From an uncultured Geitlerinema sp. (GTDB taxonomy: Bacteria > Cyanobacteriota > Cyanobacteriia > Cyanobacteriales > PCC-9228): a DNA stretch of 32,000 nucleotides. This document shows, piece by piece, positions 7,346 to 15,191 of this stretch. The DNA is taken from NCBI GenBank assembly GCA_964477525.1, contig CAYZHY010000014.1, forward strand, positions 9,501 through 41,500, written 5' to 3'. The translations under genes and the position numbers were made by a program. Position 1 is the first letter of the stretch, and the number at the start of each line of letters is the position of its first letter. The notes below the pieces were generated by a model that worked only from the letters and a program-made list of their open reading frames with translations, was not told the origin of the DNA and ran no database searches.

Positions 7346-8422
7346 CTACCGAGAAGTGCCCACGGCTTCTTGGGAAGGAGAAGAAGCCACCACTTCCGAG
7401 GAGCGACCTTCCCAAAGTTGGGCAATCTTGCTGAAATCAACCCCAGCAGCGCGCAAAGCATGCCAGAGGTGACCTTGCAGGAAGAAAAAGGCAAGGAAAA
7501 AGTGAGCGTTAGCCAGCCAAGCACGAGGTGTATACGTTCCTGGTTCCAACTGTGCCGTATCTGCAAAATACGGGACAAAACTAACCTGCAATTCCAACGT
7601 GGGACCGTAAAATTCTGTGGGATAAGCCAGGGTATTGAAAGCGCAGAAAGCAGTCGCAACGAATCCTGCCAAGGCAATACCGCCCAACGAGTAAGACAAA
7701 ATGGCTTCTCCCGAGAAATTCAGCAAGCGTTTTGCCCAAGCAAAAGGTTCCTGCACGATGTGCCAAATTCCGCCTGCCAACAGCAAAATGGCAACGTAGA
7801 TATGACCGCCGACCAAATCCTCTAGATTATCAATCCAGAGAAAATCGGTTTGATAGCTGTAAATCACCCAAGGATTGAGGGTAGGATTGGTCACCTGACG
7901 CACCTCACCCAAATTGGGGTCGTAGAGACCACCACCAGCAGTAGCGTGGAAAACAAAGAGCAATGCACCCAATCCCAGAAAAATCAAATGGATACCGAGA
8001 ATCGACCCCAGTTTTTTCGGGTCGTTCCACTCAAAATGGAATTTGGCAGCGCCACCGGAAGCCTGTTTCAAATCGCTGGGAACGCGAACTTGGTGGAAGA
8101 AAGCACCCAATCCCAACACGCCAGAAGAAATCAGATGGACTACGCCTACCACATAAAAGGGATAGGTATCGATCGCTTCTGGACCTTCTGTCATTCCCAA
8201 GCCTAAAGCCGCCAAATGGGGCAACAGAATCAACCCCTGTTCGTACATGGGGGCTGCTGGGTTATACTGGGAGAGTTCGAAGAGGGTAAACGCACCTGCC
8301 CAAAACACAATCAGGGCAGCGTGGGCAATGTGGGCGGTGAGAAACGTACCGGATAAATTAGCCAGCCGGGCGTTTCCCGCCCACCATCCATATCGGACTT
8401 GAGAGTTTCCGTAAGTTTGCAT
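7346..8422 (-). CDS. isiA: IsiA/CP43'-family chlorophyll-binding antenna protein (third gene of cluster)
   Basis: 358 aa. N-terminus [20 protein letters not shown]...[16 protein letters not shown] and six-helix CP43-like blocks without the large lumenal loop. GAGGAGG SD lies 5 nt upstream of the ATG. Confidence 0.88.
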
Positions 8423-8442
8423 AAATGCCTCCTCAATGCAAG

Positions 8443-9843
8443 TTAGTTAATCGTGCCGCGAAAGATAGCGTCGATGGTTTCAAAGTTTTGCAAGAGAAAG
8501 TAAGCGACCCAAGCGCCGCCAACGCCACCAATCAGGAAGCTAGCGCGAAATTGGTTCCAATCTTGTTGGTTTTGCAGCCAGTAGAAGATGGTGCCTTCCC
8601 GGCAAGCAGCGAGAACGACGGTTACGATGGCGATAATGGCTACAGCCGCTAGCAAAGCCGTTTGGCGCGCCCAACTGGGTTCGGAAAGCGGACTGAGGGT
8701 GACAAACGGACCCACCAGGAAATAACCGTGGGCCATACCAATTTCCAGTCCGCGCCACATAGGCGATAAACCGCGACGGTAAACGGGCAAATTGGCCAAA
8801 AATATCAGCGTTGCTTCGCCGGAACCAGTAGCATTGGAAGCAAAGACACCGCGACGCATATCAAAGCCACCAGTACGCGATCGCACTCTGACCGCATGCC
8901 AGATGTGCCCCACCAACAGCAGCGCTGCCAAAACCACATGGGTAGTTGCCAGCCAAGTACGGGGCGTGACCGCACCATTGGCGGTTTCCGACCAACCCAA
9001 AGGTCCGTAAAACTCTACTGGATAAGCCAAATCATTGGTGGTGACAAAATAAGCCGCCAAAAATCCAGCATAGGCCAAAGCCCCCAGGCTGTAGGACAAA
9101 TAAGCTTCGCCGGACCAATACAGCACATCTCGCGCCCACTTGTAAGGCTTCGAGACCACGTGCCAAATGCCACCGACGACACACAAAAGTCCGACCCAGA
9201 TATGGCCGCCAACCAGATCTTCCAAGTTATCCACGGCAGCCATCCCTTCTGGACCTTGCACTCCTACCAGATAGCCGAAAATGCGGATGGGATTTAACGT
9301 CGGGTCGCTGACAGCGCGAACGGACTGGATATTGGCATCGTACAAACCACCAGCGTAGGTTGCCTTAAACGCCAGCAGCAACGCTCCCAGTCCCAGTAAA
9401 ATCAAGTGAATGCCCAAAATGGAGGTCATTTTGTCTTGGTCTTGCCAGTCGTAACCGAAAAAGCCAGGAATCGACTTCTCTTGCGGCAAAACCTCCGGAC
9501 CTAACAGAGCGTGGTAAACACCACCAGCTGCCAAAACGGCGGAACTCACCAAATGTAGGACCCCCACAACCAAATAGGGATAGGTATCCACAATTTGTCC
9601 GCCATCAGCAACGCCCCATCCCAACGTTGCCAAATGCGGCAGCAGAATCAGTCCTTGTTCGTATAAAGGTTCGCCGGGATGGTAACGAGAAAGTTCGAAG
9701 AGGGTAAACGCGCCTGCCCAGAAAACGATTAAGGCTGCTTGCGCCACGTGCGCTCCCAGCAATCTTCCGGAAAGGTTCGTCAAACGCGCATTGCCTGCCC
9801 ACCAACCGTAGGCTCGTTCTGGAACCGTGGTTGTTGCCGTCAT
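8443..9843 (-). CDS. CP43'/IsiA-family chlorophyll-binding protein with C-terminal PsaL-like domain
   Basis: Start trimmed to [21 protein letters not shown] (ATG 9843-9841), which overlaps the upstream gene's TGA as ATGA. The last ~132 aa (nt 8446-8841) match PsaL blocks: [30 protein letters not shown] and [25 protein letters not shown]. Confidence 0.88.
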
Positions 9844-10829
9844 AGCTTCGTGCCTCCTAATGCCTGCATGCGAGCGCGAATGGCGTGCCAAATATGGCCG
9901 GCTAAGAAAACAGCCGCCAAAGCTATATGGGCTGTCGCCAGCCAAGTGCGTGCGGTTACCGTACCGGATGCCTCTTGCAAGCCGACGGGGCCGTAAAAGA
10001 CTTCTGGATAGGCAAAGTCGTTGACAGTAACGAAATAAGCTGCCAAAACACCCATATAAGCCAAAGCGCCCAAACTATAGGAAAGATACGCTTCCCCGGA
10101 CCACACGAACAGACGTTTGGCCCAACCAAAGGGTTTGCTGGCGATATGCCATAAGCCGCCAACAACGCAGAGAAAGCCGATCCAAGCGTGACCGCCAACG
10201 AGGTCTTCTAGGTTGTGGACCGCTGCCATACCGGCGGTGCCTTGACTGCCCACCAGATAGCCGAAAATCCGAGCTGGGTTGAAGGTGGGTTGGGTGACCA
10301 CCCGTACTGCTTCTGCATTGGGGTCGTACAAACCGCCCCAAAACATGGCTTTGGTGACCAGCAACCAAGCACCCAGTCCCAGCAAAACTAGGTGAATGCC
10401 CAGAATGGTGGTCATTTTGTTGGTATCCTGCCAGCTGTAGCCGAAAAAGCCAGCAAAGGTATCGTCTCGCGACAGTACCCGCGGACCGAAAACGGCGTGG
10501 TAAATGCCACCAGCGCCCAAGACGGCAGAACCAACTAGATGCAAAATGCCAATGACGAAGAAGGGATAGGTATCTGCAATTTCTCCGCCGTCAGCAACAC
10601 CCAATCCTAGGGTGGCTAGATGCGGCAGCAGAATCAATCCTTGTTCGTACATGGGTTGTGCTGGGTTGTATTGGGCGAGTTCGAAGAGGGTAAAGGAACC
10701 TGCCCAAAAGGTGATTAAACCGCTGTGTGCGACGTGCGCGCCCAACAGTTTGCCCGATAAATCTGTAAAGCGAGCGTTCCCTGCCCACCAACCGTAGTTG
10801 GATTGCGAAGGTAACGTGGTTGTACTCAT
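9840..10829 (-). CDS. CP43'/IsiA-family chlorophyll-binding protein (first gene of cluster)
   Basis: Start trimmed to [21 protein letters not shown] (ATG 10829-10827), preceded by GAGGAGG. 329 aa. Closest by eye to the N-terminal part of the fusion gene ([31 protein letters not shown]). Confidence 0.88.
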
Positions 10830-10857
10830 GGATGAGGACCTCCTCAACGGTGGCTCA

Positions 10858-10880
10858 TTGTTGAAAAAAATATTCAACAA
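10858..10880. promoter_or_regulatory. perfect palindrome TTGTTGAA-N7-TTCAACAA in the leader of the IsiA-like operon
   Basis: Read directly. 8-bp arms with a 7-nt A/T spacer, 29-51 nt upstream of the first ATG. Could be an operator or a 5'-UTR hairpin. Confidence 0.3.
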
Positions 10881-10928
10881 CCTTGGGTATCCATTCAAAC
10901 TTTATTGGCAAAAATTTGCAAGTGGTTT

Positions 10929-11117: not shown

Positions 11118-11168
11118 CTCCTCCCACTCCTCCCACTCCTCCCACTCCTCCCACTCCTCCCACTCCTC
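11118..11168. repeat. 9-nt tandem repeat CTCCTCCCA (minus strand TGGGAGGAG), about 5.7 copies
   Basis: Read directly: five perfect units at 11118-11162 plus a partial unit. Begins 5 nt downstream of the Crp-family stop codon (11174-11176). Confidence 0.92.
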
Positions 11169-11173
11169 GTTTT

Positions 11174-11824
11174 CTAGGATTCGGCAATGCTAGGAAAATG
11201 CTTTTTGACAATCATACGCCGCTGCTGGTCAAAACTGAGAATGCCTTGGTCTTGGAATTTGCCCATCAGGCGAGTGATGGTAACGCGGCTGGTACTGATG
11301 GCGTTGGCGAGTTCTTGGTGGGTGAGGCGAATGCCAATTCGGATGCCTTGGGGGGTGGTTTCTCCCATTTCCTGTTGCAGCCATTGCAGCAGTTGTTGCA
11401 AACGTGTTTCAACACGACGTTGCCCCGCGATCGCTAACAATGCCTCGACTTGCTGCAGTCGCCGGTTGATTTGCGGCAGGAGTTGCTGCGCTAGAGTCGG
11501 TGAAGATTCGATGTCGGTCATGGAATACCAAGTTAAATAGACATCTGACTGAGCTTTGACTTGATAGGTGGGTAAGGAGGTCAACCAAGATCCAAAACAC
11601 AAATTAGGACCAACCCAACCAACCAAGCCTTCGTTTCCATTTAAATAAAATGTACTTACCTGCACGTATCCCTCACAAACCTGCCAGATGCCGCAATGCT
11701 TGCTGGTGATGGGTTGCCCCTTGCGATAAAAAAAACAGCGGGTTTTGGTCAAGCGATCGCGAAGCGTCGGGGAACGAGAGTCGCGGTGCTGGGTTGCTTG
11801 CCATAGCGATGTGGTGGCGCTCAT
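11174..11824 (-). CDS. Crp/Fnr-family transcriptional regulator
   Basis: 216 aa. N-terminal beta-roll effector-like region and C-terminal HTH LTHQELANAISTSRVTITRLMGKFQDQGIL. GAGGAG lies 10 nt upstream of the ATG. Confidence 0.82.
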   Translation of the reverse strand: MSATTSLWQATQHRDSRSPTLRDRLTKTRCFFYRKGQPITSKHCGIWQVCEGYVQVSTFYLNGNEGLVGWVGPNLCFGSWLTSLPTYQVKAQSDVYLTWYSMTDIESSPTLAQQLLPQINRRLQQVEALLAIAGQRRVETRLQQLLQWLQQEMGETTPQGIRIGIRLTHQELANAISTSRVTITRLMGKFQDQGILSFDQQRRMIVKKHFPSIAES

Positions 11825-11901
11825 TTGCTGGAATCTCCTCAGCGAATGGTTGTTCGGACTTGTATGGTTGGATTTTGTTGCAACTCATCTTCAACAATTA
11901 A

Positions 11902-11930
11902 ATTATAATTTTATTAAAAATAATTTGCAA
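11902..11930 (-). promoter_or_regulatory. sigma70-type promoter candidate for the Crp-family gene
   Basis: The minus strand reads TTGCAA (11930-11925), a 17-nt spacer, then TATAAT (11907-11902). The -10 lies inside the 10-bp palindrome AATTATAATT (11901-11910), about 78 nt upstream of the ATG. Confidence 0.45.
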
Positions 11931-12073
11931 TTTTGTAATCAGCCATGGGGTCTTCTATCTTCGGGCGCCAAGCGGTGTTTTGTGTCCATCATCCCTGGAT
12001 TATGGGGGATTTGAATTTTATACATATTTTGTCTGTATCTATCTTTGTGGCATTTTATTGCAAATAAAATCAA

Positions 12074-12103
12074 TTGTTGTCTGGCGACATCGACGGTTAT
12101 AAT
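12074..12103 (+). promoter_or_regulatory. promoter candidate (TTGTTG-N18-TATAAT) directed toward the 12543 gene
   Basis: Consensus -10 TATAAT at 12098-12103. The -35 TTGTTG at 12074-12079 is weak. The Fur box begins 3 nt downstream of the -10. Confidence 0.4.
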
Positions 12104-12105
12104 AT

Positions 12106-12124
12106 GATAGAGATAATCATTATC
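12106..12124. promoter_or_regulatory. Fur box (17/19 match to GATAATGATAATCATTATC)
   Basis: GATAGAGATAATCATTATC read directly. It is embedded in a larger inverted repeat, TAATATGATA (12100-12109) / TATCATATTA (12121-12130). Confidence 0.6.
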
Positions 12125-12370
12125 ATATTAATTCGTTCGGAGTTGGTTGGCAAGGGTAAATAGCGATCGCCGTTGTGGATTTCGTATCGTGGTTGACAAA
12201 GCCAGCTTGGATCGTACAAAGTACAAAAAAGTAACGCTCTGTAGGCGTTGGCAAATCCCCCCATAACTGTAGTCAATTCTACATTCAAAATTAAAAAAGA
12301 CCCCAGCAGGTAAATAAGTAGAATTACTTAATATGTTAGATTGAGCCCACCTTTCCAATGACTGGTAGCT

Positions 12371-12408
12371 GCGATGGTGCCTTGGGCACCGGTCCTTCGG
12401 ACCATCGC
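12371..12408 (+). other. compact two-hairpin RNA structure in the long leader (terminator or attenuator candidate)
   Basis: Closing stem GCGAT...ATCGC enclosing GTGCC-TTG-GGCAC and GGTCC-TTC-GGACC, followed by GTTTCATTCT. About 135 nt upstream of the 12543 ATG. Confidence 0.35.
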
Positions 12409-12542
12409 GTTTCATTCTATAATCGTTTGCCCGTTATATAACCAATTGAACAACTTTACGTACGAACAATTGATAAATCTTGCCAGCCAACGCCATCGGA
12501 ATACTTCTCCATTCCGTTGTTGTTAATTTCCGTTGACCCAAA

Positions 12543-15191
12543 ATGCCTGATACCTCCATTCCTCTCTATCCCGAACCTGCCAAAGTTCCCTCCGAACCCT
12601 ACGAATACCTAGAGTACGAAAACTGGCTTGCCTTTCACCGGGTTTGGGGCAAAATGAACGACGATACCATAAATGCGATCGCCCGTCACCTACAAGTTTT
12701 GCCCATCCCTGCCCACACCCCTATTTATCAAGAAAACCAAACCCCCCAAGGCATTTATTTTCTCAAATGGGGAACCGTGGAAATTTACCGCCAATCCCCC
12801 GTGGGTAAAAGCCACATCACCTATCGCAACGCCGGAGAAGTCTTTGGCTATTTGCCCCTGGTAAGCAACCAATGGCAGCATAAATATCAAGCCAATGCGA
12901 TCGCACTCACCAGTAGCGAAGTTTGGTTTCTCCATCGGGATACCCTCCAAACCCTCACCCAACAATATCCCGACCTACAGCAAGCCATTACCAGCCTATT
13001 AGTACAAGATTTAGAGCGATTTACCGAACGAATCGCCAGCGAACAAGCCAGAATCCAGGGATTGCAACCTTACCTGCAACCCCTGCCCCACCAAGAACGC
13101 ATCGTTGGTTCTAGCAAACCCAGCCAAAAACTCGCCAAATCCGTCGAAACCGCCAGTCAAGACCAAAAACCCATTGTTTTCCAAGCCCAACGCGGTACCG
13201 GCAAAACCTTTATCGCCGGCTTAATCCACCAAAAATCTTCCCTGCAAAACCAACCCTTCGCCGAAATTGACTGCGCCACCCTGGTTCGCGAAGCAGGAGG
13301 TACCATCAACAGCGATCGCATTTTTGGCAGCGGCGAACACACCATTGGTATCCTAGAACTAGTCGAACGCGGCACCCTCGCCATCGACAACGTGCATTTG
13401 CTCAGCAAATCCGACCGCGAACGGCTATTTGAATACCTAAAAACCGGCACCATCTACCGCAACCATGCCACCACCCCGCGACAAATCTCCGTTCGCCTGA
13501 TTCTGATAGCCCCGCAAAAACTAGATCTCCCCGATATCGACCACCACACCATCAAACTCCCGCCCCTCACACAACGCAAAGCCGATATTGGCGAATTTGC
13601 CCGTCACTTCCTCCGTAAGTTTTGCCAAGAAAGCGATCGCCCCTTCCTCGAACTCGACCAAGCCGACCTGCGGCGCTTAATTAGCTACAACTACCCCGGC
13701 AACATCGCCGAACTCGCCGCCATCCTCGAACGCGCCGTCGCCATGACCCCAAGCGGGCAAACCGTCATCCCCGAACAAGTCTTGTGGTCGGTAGAATCCC
13801 AGAAAAACAGCTTTCGCATCGACCTACTCAACTTTATCCCCGGCTTGCGCAAATTCCTCCTCAGCGACTGGTGGCCCCAGCGTACCTGGATTTTGATGAT
13901 GCTTGTCTTTGTTCCCGTCACCCTTATGGGCTTCATCGGACCGCAAGAGCGCGGCGAGAGCATCACTTTACACTTATTTTGGGCGTGGTGGTGGCCTTTT
14001 TACTTACTCTTATTTCCCATTTTAGGGCGTTTGTGGTGTTCCGTATGTCCATTTATGATAACTGCTGAATGGTTGCGCAACCTTTCCTTGTGGATATTCC
14101 CCCGTTCCCTGAAACCCTGGAACACCAAAGCCTTAAATCGTTGGGGCGCTTGGTGGCTTTGGGCAGGATTCGTCGCCATTTACATCTGGGAAAAACTCTG
14201 GGATTTGCCCCACAGCGCCTACCTCTCCGCCTGGCTGTTAATGATTATCACCGGCGGTGCCATTATCTTTAGCCTAATTTACGAACGTCGCCTGTGGTGC
14301 CGCTACCTGTGCCCCATCGGCGGCATGAACGGGTTATTTGCCAAACTCTCCGTTGTGGAATTGCGATCGACCCAACAAGTGTGTGGCAGTCAGTGCAGTA
14401 CCTTTGGCTGCTACAAAGGCAGCGATGCCACCCCGGTGAACTTTTCCGATCCTTTGCCCACCGAAGGGCAAGCCACCGGCGGCTGCCCCCTCTATTCCCA
14501 TCCCGCGCAATTAAAAGACAATCGCGATTGCATGTTCTGCATGACCTGTTTGAAAGCCTGCCCCAATCGTTCCGTACAGCTAAACCTACGCTTTCCCGCC
14601 GCCGATATTCTAGAAAATCACCAGCCGTTTTGGGCAGAAGTGGCGTTGCTGGTGCTATTGCTGGGTGGCGTTTTCATGCACCAAGGCAATAAATTTCTCA
14701 GTTGGTTTGGTTGGGGCGATATTCCCTTGGATTCGGAACATTTGCTGGTTTCTTTGCCAGTGGTATCCCTGCTGTTAAGTATTCCCTTTGTGTTAACCTA
14801 TGGAATCCACCAACTGACGCGCTTGTGGATGCGTTTGGTCTTTCCTAGCGGGCAACAGACATTTCCCGAGTATCTTCAGGTTATTTATGCCTATTTGCCT
14901 CTCACCCTGGGTGCCAATTTGGCATACTATATCCCCACCGCGATTACCGAGTCGGGAACGCTTTTGCCCACATTGGCGCGTACGGCTGGCTTTAGCGGTG
15001 GGATGCTGCCGACACTAACCTGGAGTTTGGATGTAGCCAATTTTTTGCAAGGTGTAGTGCTGTTGTGGTCTTTTGGGTTTAGCGTTTATCTGCTATCGGG
15101 GATTACCAAGCGGTTTGTGAAAGCCAATCTTCCCCATATTTTGTTGATGTTGGGGTTGACGGTGGTTTTCTTTCCGTTGATGGTCCTGTAA
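12543..15191 (+). CDS. fusion protein: cNMP-binding domain + degenerate sigma54-interaction (NtrC-type AAA+) domain + membrane polyferredoxin (NapH/NosR-like 4Fe-4S) domain
   Basis: 882 aa. cNMP/CRP-like beta-roll at about aa 45-150. AAA+ module at aa 186-405 (IVGSS.., Walker A RGTGKT, GTLAIDNV, PPLTQRKADIGEFARHFL, YPGNIAELAAILERA). At least 6 hydrophobic helices follow. Cys motifs: CSVCPF, CRYLCPIGG, CGSQCSTFGC, CMFCMTCLKACP. Confidence 0.82.
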   Translation: MPDTSIPLYPEPAKVPSEPYEYLEYENWLAFHRVWGKMNDDTINAIARHLQVLPIPAHTPIYQENQTPQGIYFLKWGTVEIYRQSPVGKSHITYRNAGEVFGYLPLVSNQWQHKYQANAIALTSSEVWFLHRDTLQTLTQQYPDLQQAITSLLVQDLERFTERIASEQARIQGLQPYLQPLPHQERIVGSSKPSQKLAKSVETASQDQKPIVFQAQRGTGKTFIAGLIHQKSSLQNQPFAEIDCATLVREAGGTINSDRIFGSGEHTIGILELVERGTLAIDNVHLLSKSDRERLFEYLKTGTIYRNHATTPRQISVRLILIAPQKLDLPDIDHHTIKLPPLTQRKADIGEFARHFLRKFCQESDRPFLELDQADLRRLISYNYPGNIAELAAILERAVAMTPSGQTVIPEQVLWSVESQKNSFRIDLLNFIPGLRKFLLSDWWPQRTWILMMLVFVPVTLMGFIGPQERGESITLHLFWAWWWPFYLLLFPILGRLWCSVCPFMITAEWLRNLSLWIFPRSLKPWNTKALNRWGAWWLWAGFVAIYIWEKLWDLPHSAYLSAWLLMIITGGAIIFSLIYERRLWCRYLCPIGGMNGLFAKLSVVELRSTQQVCGSQCSTFGCYKGSDATPVNFSDPLPTEGQATGGCPLYSHPAQLKDNRDCMFCMTCLKACPNRSVQLNLRFPAADILENHQPFWAEVALLVLLLGGVFMHQGNKFLSWFGWGDIPLDSEHLLVSLPVVSLLLSIPFVLTYGIHQLTRLWMRLVFPSGQQTFPEYLQVIYAYLPLTLGANLAYYIPTAITESGTLLPTLARTAGFSGGMLPTLTWSLDVANFLQGVVLLWSFGFSVYLLSGITKRFVKANLPHILLMLGLTVVFFPLMVL

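Follow-up and report, generated by a model that had tools for sequence, protein, structure and literature searches.

Which regulator acts on the palindromic site between two divergent genes, and on which of the two, are the questions raised by this cyanobacterial locus, which we analysed within a 32-kb window (the whole stretch of DNA studied, 32,000 nt). The earlier note on this DNA had taken the site for an iron-sensing Fur box serving a transcript on the plus strand.

The palindrome, its conservation and its neighbourhood

The site and the flanking genes are arranged as follows.

11174-11824, minus strand: PtrA-like regulator of the Crp/Fnr family, 216 aa (Pfam HTH_Crp_2 and Crp; NCBIfam PtrA, 164.5 bits)
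12052-12070, no strand: AT-rich imperfect palindrome ATTTTATTGCAAATAAAAT with perfect 8-nt arms, 5' of the plus-strand -35-like element
12100-12130, no strand: 31-bp palindrome enclosing the operator (inverted-repeat search); outer arms differ among lineages
12105-12125, no strand: candidate Fur-family operator with two overlapping 7-1-7 sites, including the 19-bp box (matrix and conservation)
12543-15191, plus strand: 882-aa protein with cNMP-binding, sigma-54-type AAA+ and NapH-like polyferredoxin membrane domains (domain search)

The sequence GATAGAGATAATCATTATC at 12106-12124 matches the 19-bp consensus GATAATGATAATCATTATC of the classical E. coli/Pseudomonas Fur box at 17 of 19 positions, as the earlier note had claimed, and it is the single place in the 32-kb window with three or fewer mismatches to that consensus (0.01 expected; 0 of 100 shuffles). 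The inverted repeat around it, previously described with 10-bp arms, is in fact longer, with 15-nt arms (12100-12114 and 12116-12130) that are 87% complementary and perfect over the outer 10 bp. Because these outer arms vary between lineages, palindromic constraint on the 31-bp repeat is limited to its core. Within it lie two overlapping 7-1-7 sites, AGATAATCATTATCA at 12111-12125 and TGATAGAGATAATCA at 12105-12119, which match TGATAATnATTATCA at 14 and 12 of 15 positions, respectively, and thus form the 7-1-7 repeat of the Fur family. Odd-length palindromes of this form are typical of Fur-family sites, and the reinterpretation of the 19-bp Fur box as a 7-1-7 repeat is said to go back to Baichoo and Helmann in 2002. 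From the 3' end of the box to the ATG of the 882-aa gene at 12543 there are 419 nt.

Close relatives were found by exact-protein look-ups (L081/L082, L092-L094 and L179) and make four lineages together with the window, while scans of public genome and metagenome collections yielded distant relatives only (at most 61% and 67% identity); conservation as described here is that among these four, partly recombinant, lineages. All of them keep the divergent pair of crp-like and 882-aa genes, with a spacer of 695-750 nt in the three relatives, and share an invariant 14-mer, GATAATCATTATCA, with variable flanks. The box of the relatives, GATAACGATAATCATTATC, agrees with the Fur consensus at 18 of 19 positions, a shift towards consensus. 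The segment 12105-12125 is thus very probably a real Fur-family operator and would be an ordinary find in itself, a further example of an operator type already known, here unusually placed. What can be observed directly is the motif, how rare and how conserved it is, and the promoter-like hexamers together with the pattern in which they are conserved; from these we infer repressor binding, metal identity, transcription starts and direction of control at 12105-12125.

The upstream regions of 37 other 882-aa gene homologues (at most 85% identity) yielded no Fur-type box, and the box is absent upstream of ~90 other crp homologues, including Geitlerinema-type genes that are 75-78% identical. With ~120 upstream regions of more distant homologues lacking the box, Fur control as a family-wide property of either gene was rejected.

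The second AT-rich palindrome at 12052-12070, also pointed out previously, is indeed present. In the four-lineage alignment its left arm TTTATTG alone is invariant, and the palindromy is gone in L179. We rejected it as a FurA box, given a FurA-matrix score of at most 5.4 bits and the unconserved palindromy; it may be an UP-like tract and not the site of a factor.

Relatedness changes along the locus. The 882-aa gene is 96% identical in DNA to that of L081 (90.6% at third codon positions) and the adjacent crp-like gene only 84.5%, and the L179 locus has L081-like flanks around an L092-like spacer centre. Such mosaic relatedness of 11174-15191 to L081 and L179 implies recombination breakpoints that would lie within the intergenic region.

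As to the genes themselves, the score of the crp-like gene lies below the NCBIfam PtrA cutoff of 300, and an IdiB-like identity was not upheld, with the NCBIfam result pointing to a PtrA-like protein below cutoff and a literature search giving nothing usable. A CHAD-domain gene directly precedes the crp homologue, in the same orientation, at 11 of 80 genome loci and also in Geitlerinema-type relatives (for example L060 6774-7805, L084 108-1187, L088, L089 and eight further loci), and it is this gene that the 75-78% identical Geitlerinema-type crp genes follow; the pairing is absent in the clade of the window. CHAD domains are linked to polyphosphate, in keeping with the PtrA-like (phosphate-stress) affinity of the crp homologue. 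The architecture of the 882-aa protein is widespread in cyanobacteria (L095-L178), in two paralogue groups of ~60-65% and ~38-40% identity, and a search of the paper collection used found nothing on the family. To our knowledge cyanobacteria are a phylum without sigma-54, and the protein carries a sigma-54-type AAA+ domain. On the plus strand it is followed by cysK and kptA.

Downstream of the crp-like gene, three tandem isiA-family genes occupy 7346-10898 on the minus strand, the middle one encoding an IsiA-PsaL fusion (500-aa ORF). Opposite each of them lies a full-length Rfam IsrR match on the plus strand (7852-8029, 9270-9447 and 10256-10433; 105-133 bits), and between the crp-like stop codon and the first isiA gene is a perfect tandem repeat, (CTCCTCCCA) x 5.7, at 11118-11168. 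L081 has no isiA cluster following its crp-like gene, so that the conserved unit is the pair of crp-like and 882-aa genes and not crp plus isiA.

Zinc or iron as the candidate metal

The documented, experimentally based consensus of cyanobacterial Zur (zinc) sites is TGATAATnATTATCA (PMC10957091, S3 Table and S1 File). Published examples are TGATAATCATTATCA of alr3242 and the two sites TGATTATGATAATCA and TGATAATCATTATCG of all3515 (zepA), a fragment of which is bound by Zur in EMSA, and the same core occurs in zepA promoters of Leptolyngbya, Brasilonema, Microcystis, Chlorogloea and Nostoc (PMC10957091). The consensus of the iron regulator FurA of Anabaena differs and is AT-rich, AAATAAATTCTCAATAAAT (PMC4005646), and the Fur motif of Synechocystis is reported as resembling the canonical Fur boxes of other bacteria. 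In cyanobacteria, the sites of Zur and Fur as a rule either overlap the promoter or come directly after it (PMC10957091), and bidirectional control is common for Fur (PMC8634477).

A matrix built from 13 published cyanobacterial Zur sites (PMC10957091) scored 22.6 bits at 12111-12125, inside its training range of 19.2-25.6 bits, and 11.6 bits at 12105-12119; local shuffles averaged 4.2 bits, and 0 of 500 reached 22.6. By the same matrix the orthologous operators of the relatives have two good sites (23.4 and 18.7 bits), and across 1.8 Mb taken from other cyanobacterial loci, a score of at least 18 bits was reached solely by orthologues of the box and by one probable coding coincidence inside the 882-aa gene. 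The FurA matrix, which was made from predicted boxes of one species (Anabaena; Table 1 of PMC4005646) and has a training minimum of 12.6 bits, gave 0.5 bits at best for sites overlapping the box, which matches AAATAAATTCTCAATAAAT at 11 of 19 positions. The box therefore resembles the published Zur sites but not the Anabaena-type FurA boxes. Its gene context is not that of a Zur site, as no zinc-homeostasis genes (znuABC, COG0523, TonB receptor, zinc-free paralogues) were found in the 32-kb window and the two flanking genes are not known as targets of Zur; isiA is the only metal-homeostasis gene type found in the window.

On balance the motif suggests, by a modest preference, a box of the Zur type rather than Fur; binding by Fur is less likely, and another Fur paralogue, or neither, quite improbable. 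What stands of the earlier Fur-box reading is a conserved predicted Fur-family operator next to a -10-like hexamer, and what has been weakened is its assignment to iron and Fur, by the Zur-type match (14 of 15 positions of TGATAATnATTATCA), the all3515-like layout of two sites and the FurA-matrix score of 0.5 bits. [quoted passage not shown]

Three further observations concern sites of these types elsewhere. The best FurA-type match in the window is AAAAAAATATTCAACAACC at 10864-10882 (14.1 bits; local shuffle p ~0.01), a short way upstream of the first isiA gene; this site may be a genuine iron box, of another type than the box at 12106-12124 and placed where an iron box is expected. A second near-perfect Zur/Fur-type 15-mer, TGTTAATGATTATCA (20 bits), lies at 14236-14250 inside the 882-aa gene and also occurs at L081 5544 and L175 5694; it is probably a coding coincidence, since it encodes LLMII of a conserved transmembrane segment, and less probably an operator internal to the gene. 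Lastly, palindromes like those of the Fur family, such as TAATCATTATTAATGATTA, occur at L060 5861-5889 and 6140-6158 (also in L054 and L072), within the 1.2-kb spacer upstream of the Coleofasciculus CHAD-crp pair, and on account of them Fur-family control may extend to some crp homologues elsewhere.

Predicted promoters beside the candidate operator, and the conserved non-coding block

Three promoter-like sites bear on the direction of control.

11902-11930, minus strand: proximal promoter of the crp-like gene, TTGCAA-17-TATAAT, 10 of 12 (scan); present also in L081, L092 and L179
12098-12103, plus strand: -10-like TATAAT towards the 882-aa gene, with a weak -35-like TTGTTG at 12074-12079 and an 18-nt spacer (sequence)
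12125-12153, minus strand: promoter-like site towards the crp-like gene, TTGCCA (12153-12148), 17-nt spacer, TAATAT (12130-12125) (consensus scan)

The TATAAT abutting the box and the proximal promoter of the crp-like gene had both been noticed before, and both are there. The argument drawn from them, that the box serves the plus strand because crp has its own promoter, was not borne out, because in each of the four lineages the scan found a box-abutting promoter that points to the crp-like gene, at 9-11 of 12 positions (window, 9; L081, TTGCCA-17-TAAAAT, 10; L092, TTGACA-18-TATAGT, 11; L179, TTGACA-18-TATGGT, 10). In each of the four lineages, the best-scoring promoter next to the box points to the crp-like gene. 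The three middle bases of its -10 vary in the alignment while T-A...T is invariant, which reads as the footprint of a real -10 hexamer, and we consider this promoter probably real.

The hexamer on the plus strand reads TATAAT, TATAGT, TACAAT and TACAAT in the four lineages, leaving T-A-n-A-n-T invariant; upstream of it the alignment shows CAATTGTTGT, without variation, and an AT-rich tract. Owing to its weak -35 (TTGTTG), the consensus scan did not report this promoter in any of the four lineages, nor did it find any other promoter for the 882-aa gene in the window. We put the chance that it is real at about even. TAnnnT is conserved on both sides of the box, and since face-to-face promoters are unusual, these flanks might be extended operator contacts instead of promoters. 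If they are promoters, the operator lies between two inward-facing -10 hexamers, so that both predicted starts (~12110 on the plus strand and ~12118 on the minus strand) would fall inside it. By these patterns the box may control either flanking gene, or both.

Between the box and the 882-aa gene, the alignment brings out the following elements.

12161-12329, no strand: moderately conserved non-coding block (alignment of four lineages)
12193-12220, within the block: invariant TTGACA (12193-12198), 16 nt, TACAAA (12215-12220) (alignment)
12233-12249, within the block: hairpin AACGC...GCGTT
12275-12282 and 12318-12325, within the block: inverted repeat AATTCTAC/GTAGAATT
12371-12408, no strand: hairpin element, a 30-nt insertion into HIP1 (GCGATCGC), variable between strains (alignment; folding z = -2.65)

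No conserved ORF was found in 11825-12542, in agreement with the earlier view that the interval holds no convincing one: 19 ORFs of at least 20 aa were rejected since indels of 1, 28/30 and 35 nt break their frames between lineages. Among the rejected candidates are a 95-aa ORF at 12128-12415 on the minus strand, called as a gene in L081 and broken by such indels, and a 119-aa ORF that precedes the 882-aa gene in L175/L176 and has no counterpart in the window, whose intergenic region gave no blastn match to L175-L178. Within 12161-12329, 1-nt indels exclude coding.

Across 12161-12259, every pairing of lineages is 88-97% identical, compared with 77-83% for the third codon positions of crp; towards 12329, where shared sequence ends, the figure drops to 62-95%. 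As the 882-aa side is already so similar to L081, the conservation excess of the block is moderate and the region is mosaic. Single-sequence folds of the block gave z of ~0 on both strands, and RNAalifold on three lineages found no compensatory pairs on either (alifold energy -30.95 for the plus strand, -26.28 for the minus strand). Several C-to-T changes opposite G, including some in the hairpin at 12233-12249, keep G-U pairs solely as plus-strand RNA, which leans slightly to transcription of the plus strand. The invariant TTGACA-16-TACAAA could be another promoter directed towards the 882-aa gene.

Rfam gave nothing in the intergenic region (window at the gathering threshold; 11800-12600 with permissive settings), the only matches in the whole window being IsrR inside the isiA genes and one tRNA. 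No conserved plus-strand terminator was found in a scan of the window, L081, L092 and L179. With no plus-strand terminator, Rfam match or covariation, the locus lacks the marks of a Fur-repressed small RNA of the IsaR1/RyhB kind. On the minus strand there are two terminator-like signals of a hairpin plus T6 (12249 to 12233 and 12309 to 12297), located inside the block and upstream of the box; every lineage has one or both of them intact, and a transcript for them to end is not apparent.

The structure at 12371-12408 had been proposed as the end of an iron-regulated RNA. The hairpin does exist, and it is present in the window and L081, whereas L179, with flanks 98.9% identical to L081, has the empty site GCTGCGATCGCG and L092 lacks the element. 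The 30-nt insertion varies between strains, which rules it out as a conserved 3' end for a regulated RNA. The double-hairpin insertion appears to be a small dispersed element, with a further copy at an unrelated locus in L088-L090. HIP1 sites are frequent in this DNA, which is cyanobacterial, and at ~12169 a 35-nt insertion flanked by duplicated GCGATCGC is found in L081 and L179.

Proposed control, its rivals and known systems

The reading that we prefer, as a whole about as likely to be right as wrong, is that a Fur-family metalloregulator, of the Zur (FurB) type, has its operator at 12105-12125, between the two inward-facing -10 hexamers TATAAT (12098-12103, plus strand) and TAATAT (12130-12125, minus strand). 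Metal-loaded repressor dimers, one or more, would occupy both overlapping 7-1-7 sites and cover the -10/+1 region of one or both adjacent promoters; under metal scarcity the repressor would leave and transcription begin. The better of the two promoters would be a distal, metal-controlled promoter of the PtrA-like Crp-family gene with a leader of ~294 nt, giving this gene a proximal promoter (11902-11930) and a distal metal-responsive one, and the same operator may repress the promoter directed towards the 882-aa gene as well. It is an improbable extension that one operator between face-to-face promoters co-switches, by metal status, the PtrA-like Crp regulator and a conserved ~430-nt leader RNA of the 882-aa gene, with the block at 12161-12329 as a new cis-regulatory RNA; if true, zinc or iron status would be linked to cyclic-nucleotide signalling.

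The earlier reading, in which an iron-sensing Fur box represses the plus-strand promoter at TATAAT (12098-12103) and with it a ~430-nt leader of the 882-aa gene or a ~300-nt iron-regulated RNA, seems doubtful. It would account for the match of 17 of 19 positions to the classical box, for the retention of TAnAnT in four lineages with, upstream, the invariant CAATTGTTGT and the AT-rich tract, and for the conserved block downstream of the box, and it would give the 882-aa gene the promoter that the scan found nowhere else. The helix substitutions compatible with G-U on the plus strand only, the lower alifold energy of that strand, the nearby isiA (iron-stress) cluster and the Synechocystis Fur motif, reported to be canonical-like, agree with it too. 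Against this, the motif is that of the Zur consensus in cyanobacteria and has next to no score with the Anabaena FurA matrix, the -35 is weak, the isiA cluster is not syntenic in L081, and the 37 other homologues of the 882-aa gene lack such a box upstream. The RNA itself would have no conserved plus-strand terminator, its proposed terminal hairpin being a strain-variable insertion, and its folding z of ~0, the want of compensatory pairs and the absence of an Rfam family all speak against it.

An independent small RNA gene within 12161-12329, on either strand, with the flanking protein genes as bystanders, is improbable. The block is conserved above crp third positions and its shared sequence stops after the hairpin arm GTAGAATTACTT at 12329; neither flanking gene family has such a box elsewhere, and the minus strand has the two terminator-like hairpin-plus-T6 signals. 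These signals, however, lie upstream and not downstream of the box-adjacent minus-strand promoter, the plus strand has no terminator, there is neither an Rfam match nor a thermodynamic or covariation signal, and similarity between the window and L081 is high here anyway, as the third positions of the 882-aa gene attest. Less likely still, the site is no Fur-family operator, being a chance palindrome or the site of another factor, for example one for Crp-family autoregulation. A regulator gene does adjoin it, and AT-rich intergenic DNA yields palindromes, but the chance expectation of 0.01 per window, the failure of all 500 local shuffles to reach the score and a 14-mer invariant amid variable flanks argue otherwise. 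So does the odd-length 7-1-7 form, as Crp/Fnr sites have even spacers (TGTGA-N6-TCACA, TTGAT-N4-ATCAA, GTA-N8-TAC).

If the Zur-type, metal-controlled operator is confirmed, a Crp-family regulator, a widespread 882-aa protein, or both would be under direct metal-sensor control in one filamentous cyanobacterial clade, and there would be a first experimental handle on when the crp-like and 882-aa genes are expressed.

Among known systems, the classical E. coli/Pseudomonas 19-bp Fur box is matched at 17 positions in the window and 18 in the relatives, and the site likewise abuts a -10-like hexamer in the classical geometry of repression by occlusion; it differs in that FurA of Anabaena uses the other consensus, AAATAAATTCTCAATAAAT (PMC4005646), with whose matrix the window site scores ~0 bits. 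IsaR1 of Synechocystis is a Fur-repressed sRNA of ~68 nt. The bidirectional promoters under Fur in Synechocystis, and IsaR1 (PMC8634477), share with our locus a box less than 50 nt from predicted starts on both strands and non-coding sequence downstream. Unlike the bidirectional promoters, the predicted ones of the window face each other and are not divergent, and unlike IsaR1, the window has a conserved block of ~170-220 nt; a short RNA bounded by a terminator is lacking, and neither Rfam nor the sequence gives evidence of IsaR1.

The Zur (FurB) operators of all3515 (zepA) and alr3242 in Anabaena sp. PCC 7120 (Napolitano et al. 2012, as cited in PMC10957091) offer further likenesses. They have the same 15-bp 7-1-7 core (TGATAATCATTATCA in alr3242, AGATAATCATTATCA in the window), the same two sites overlapping at a 6-bp offset (TGATTATGATAATCATTATCG in all3515, TGATAGAGATAATCATTATCA in the window), and the same position overlapping or directly following the -10, which in the window is a predicted one. 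In contrast to them, the candidate operator in the window has A or C in place of the first T of its left half-site, lies between two inward-facing -10 hexamers and is flanked by regulator genes, not by genes for zinc uptake or zinc-sparing paralogues. What would be unusual about the locus is the presence of two regulators as targets, the inward-facing geometry of the predicted promoters and the conserved non-coding block.
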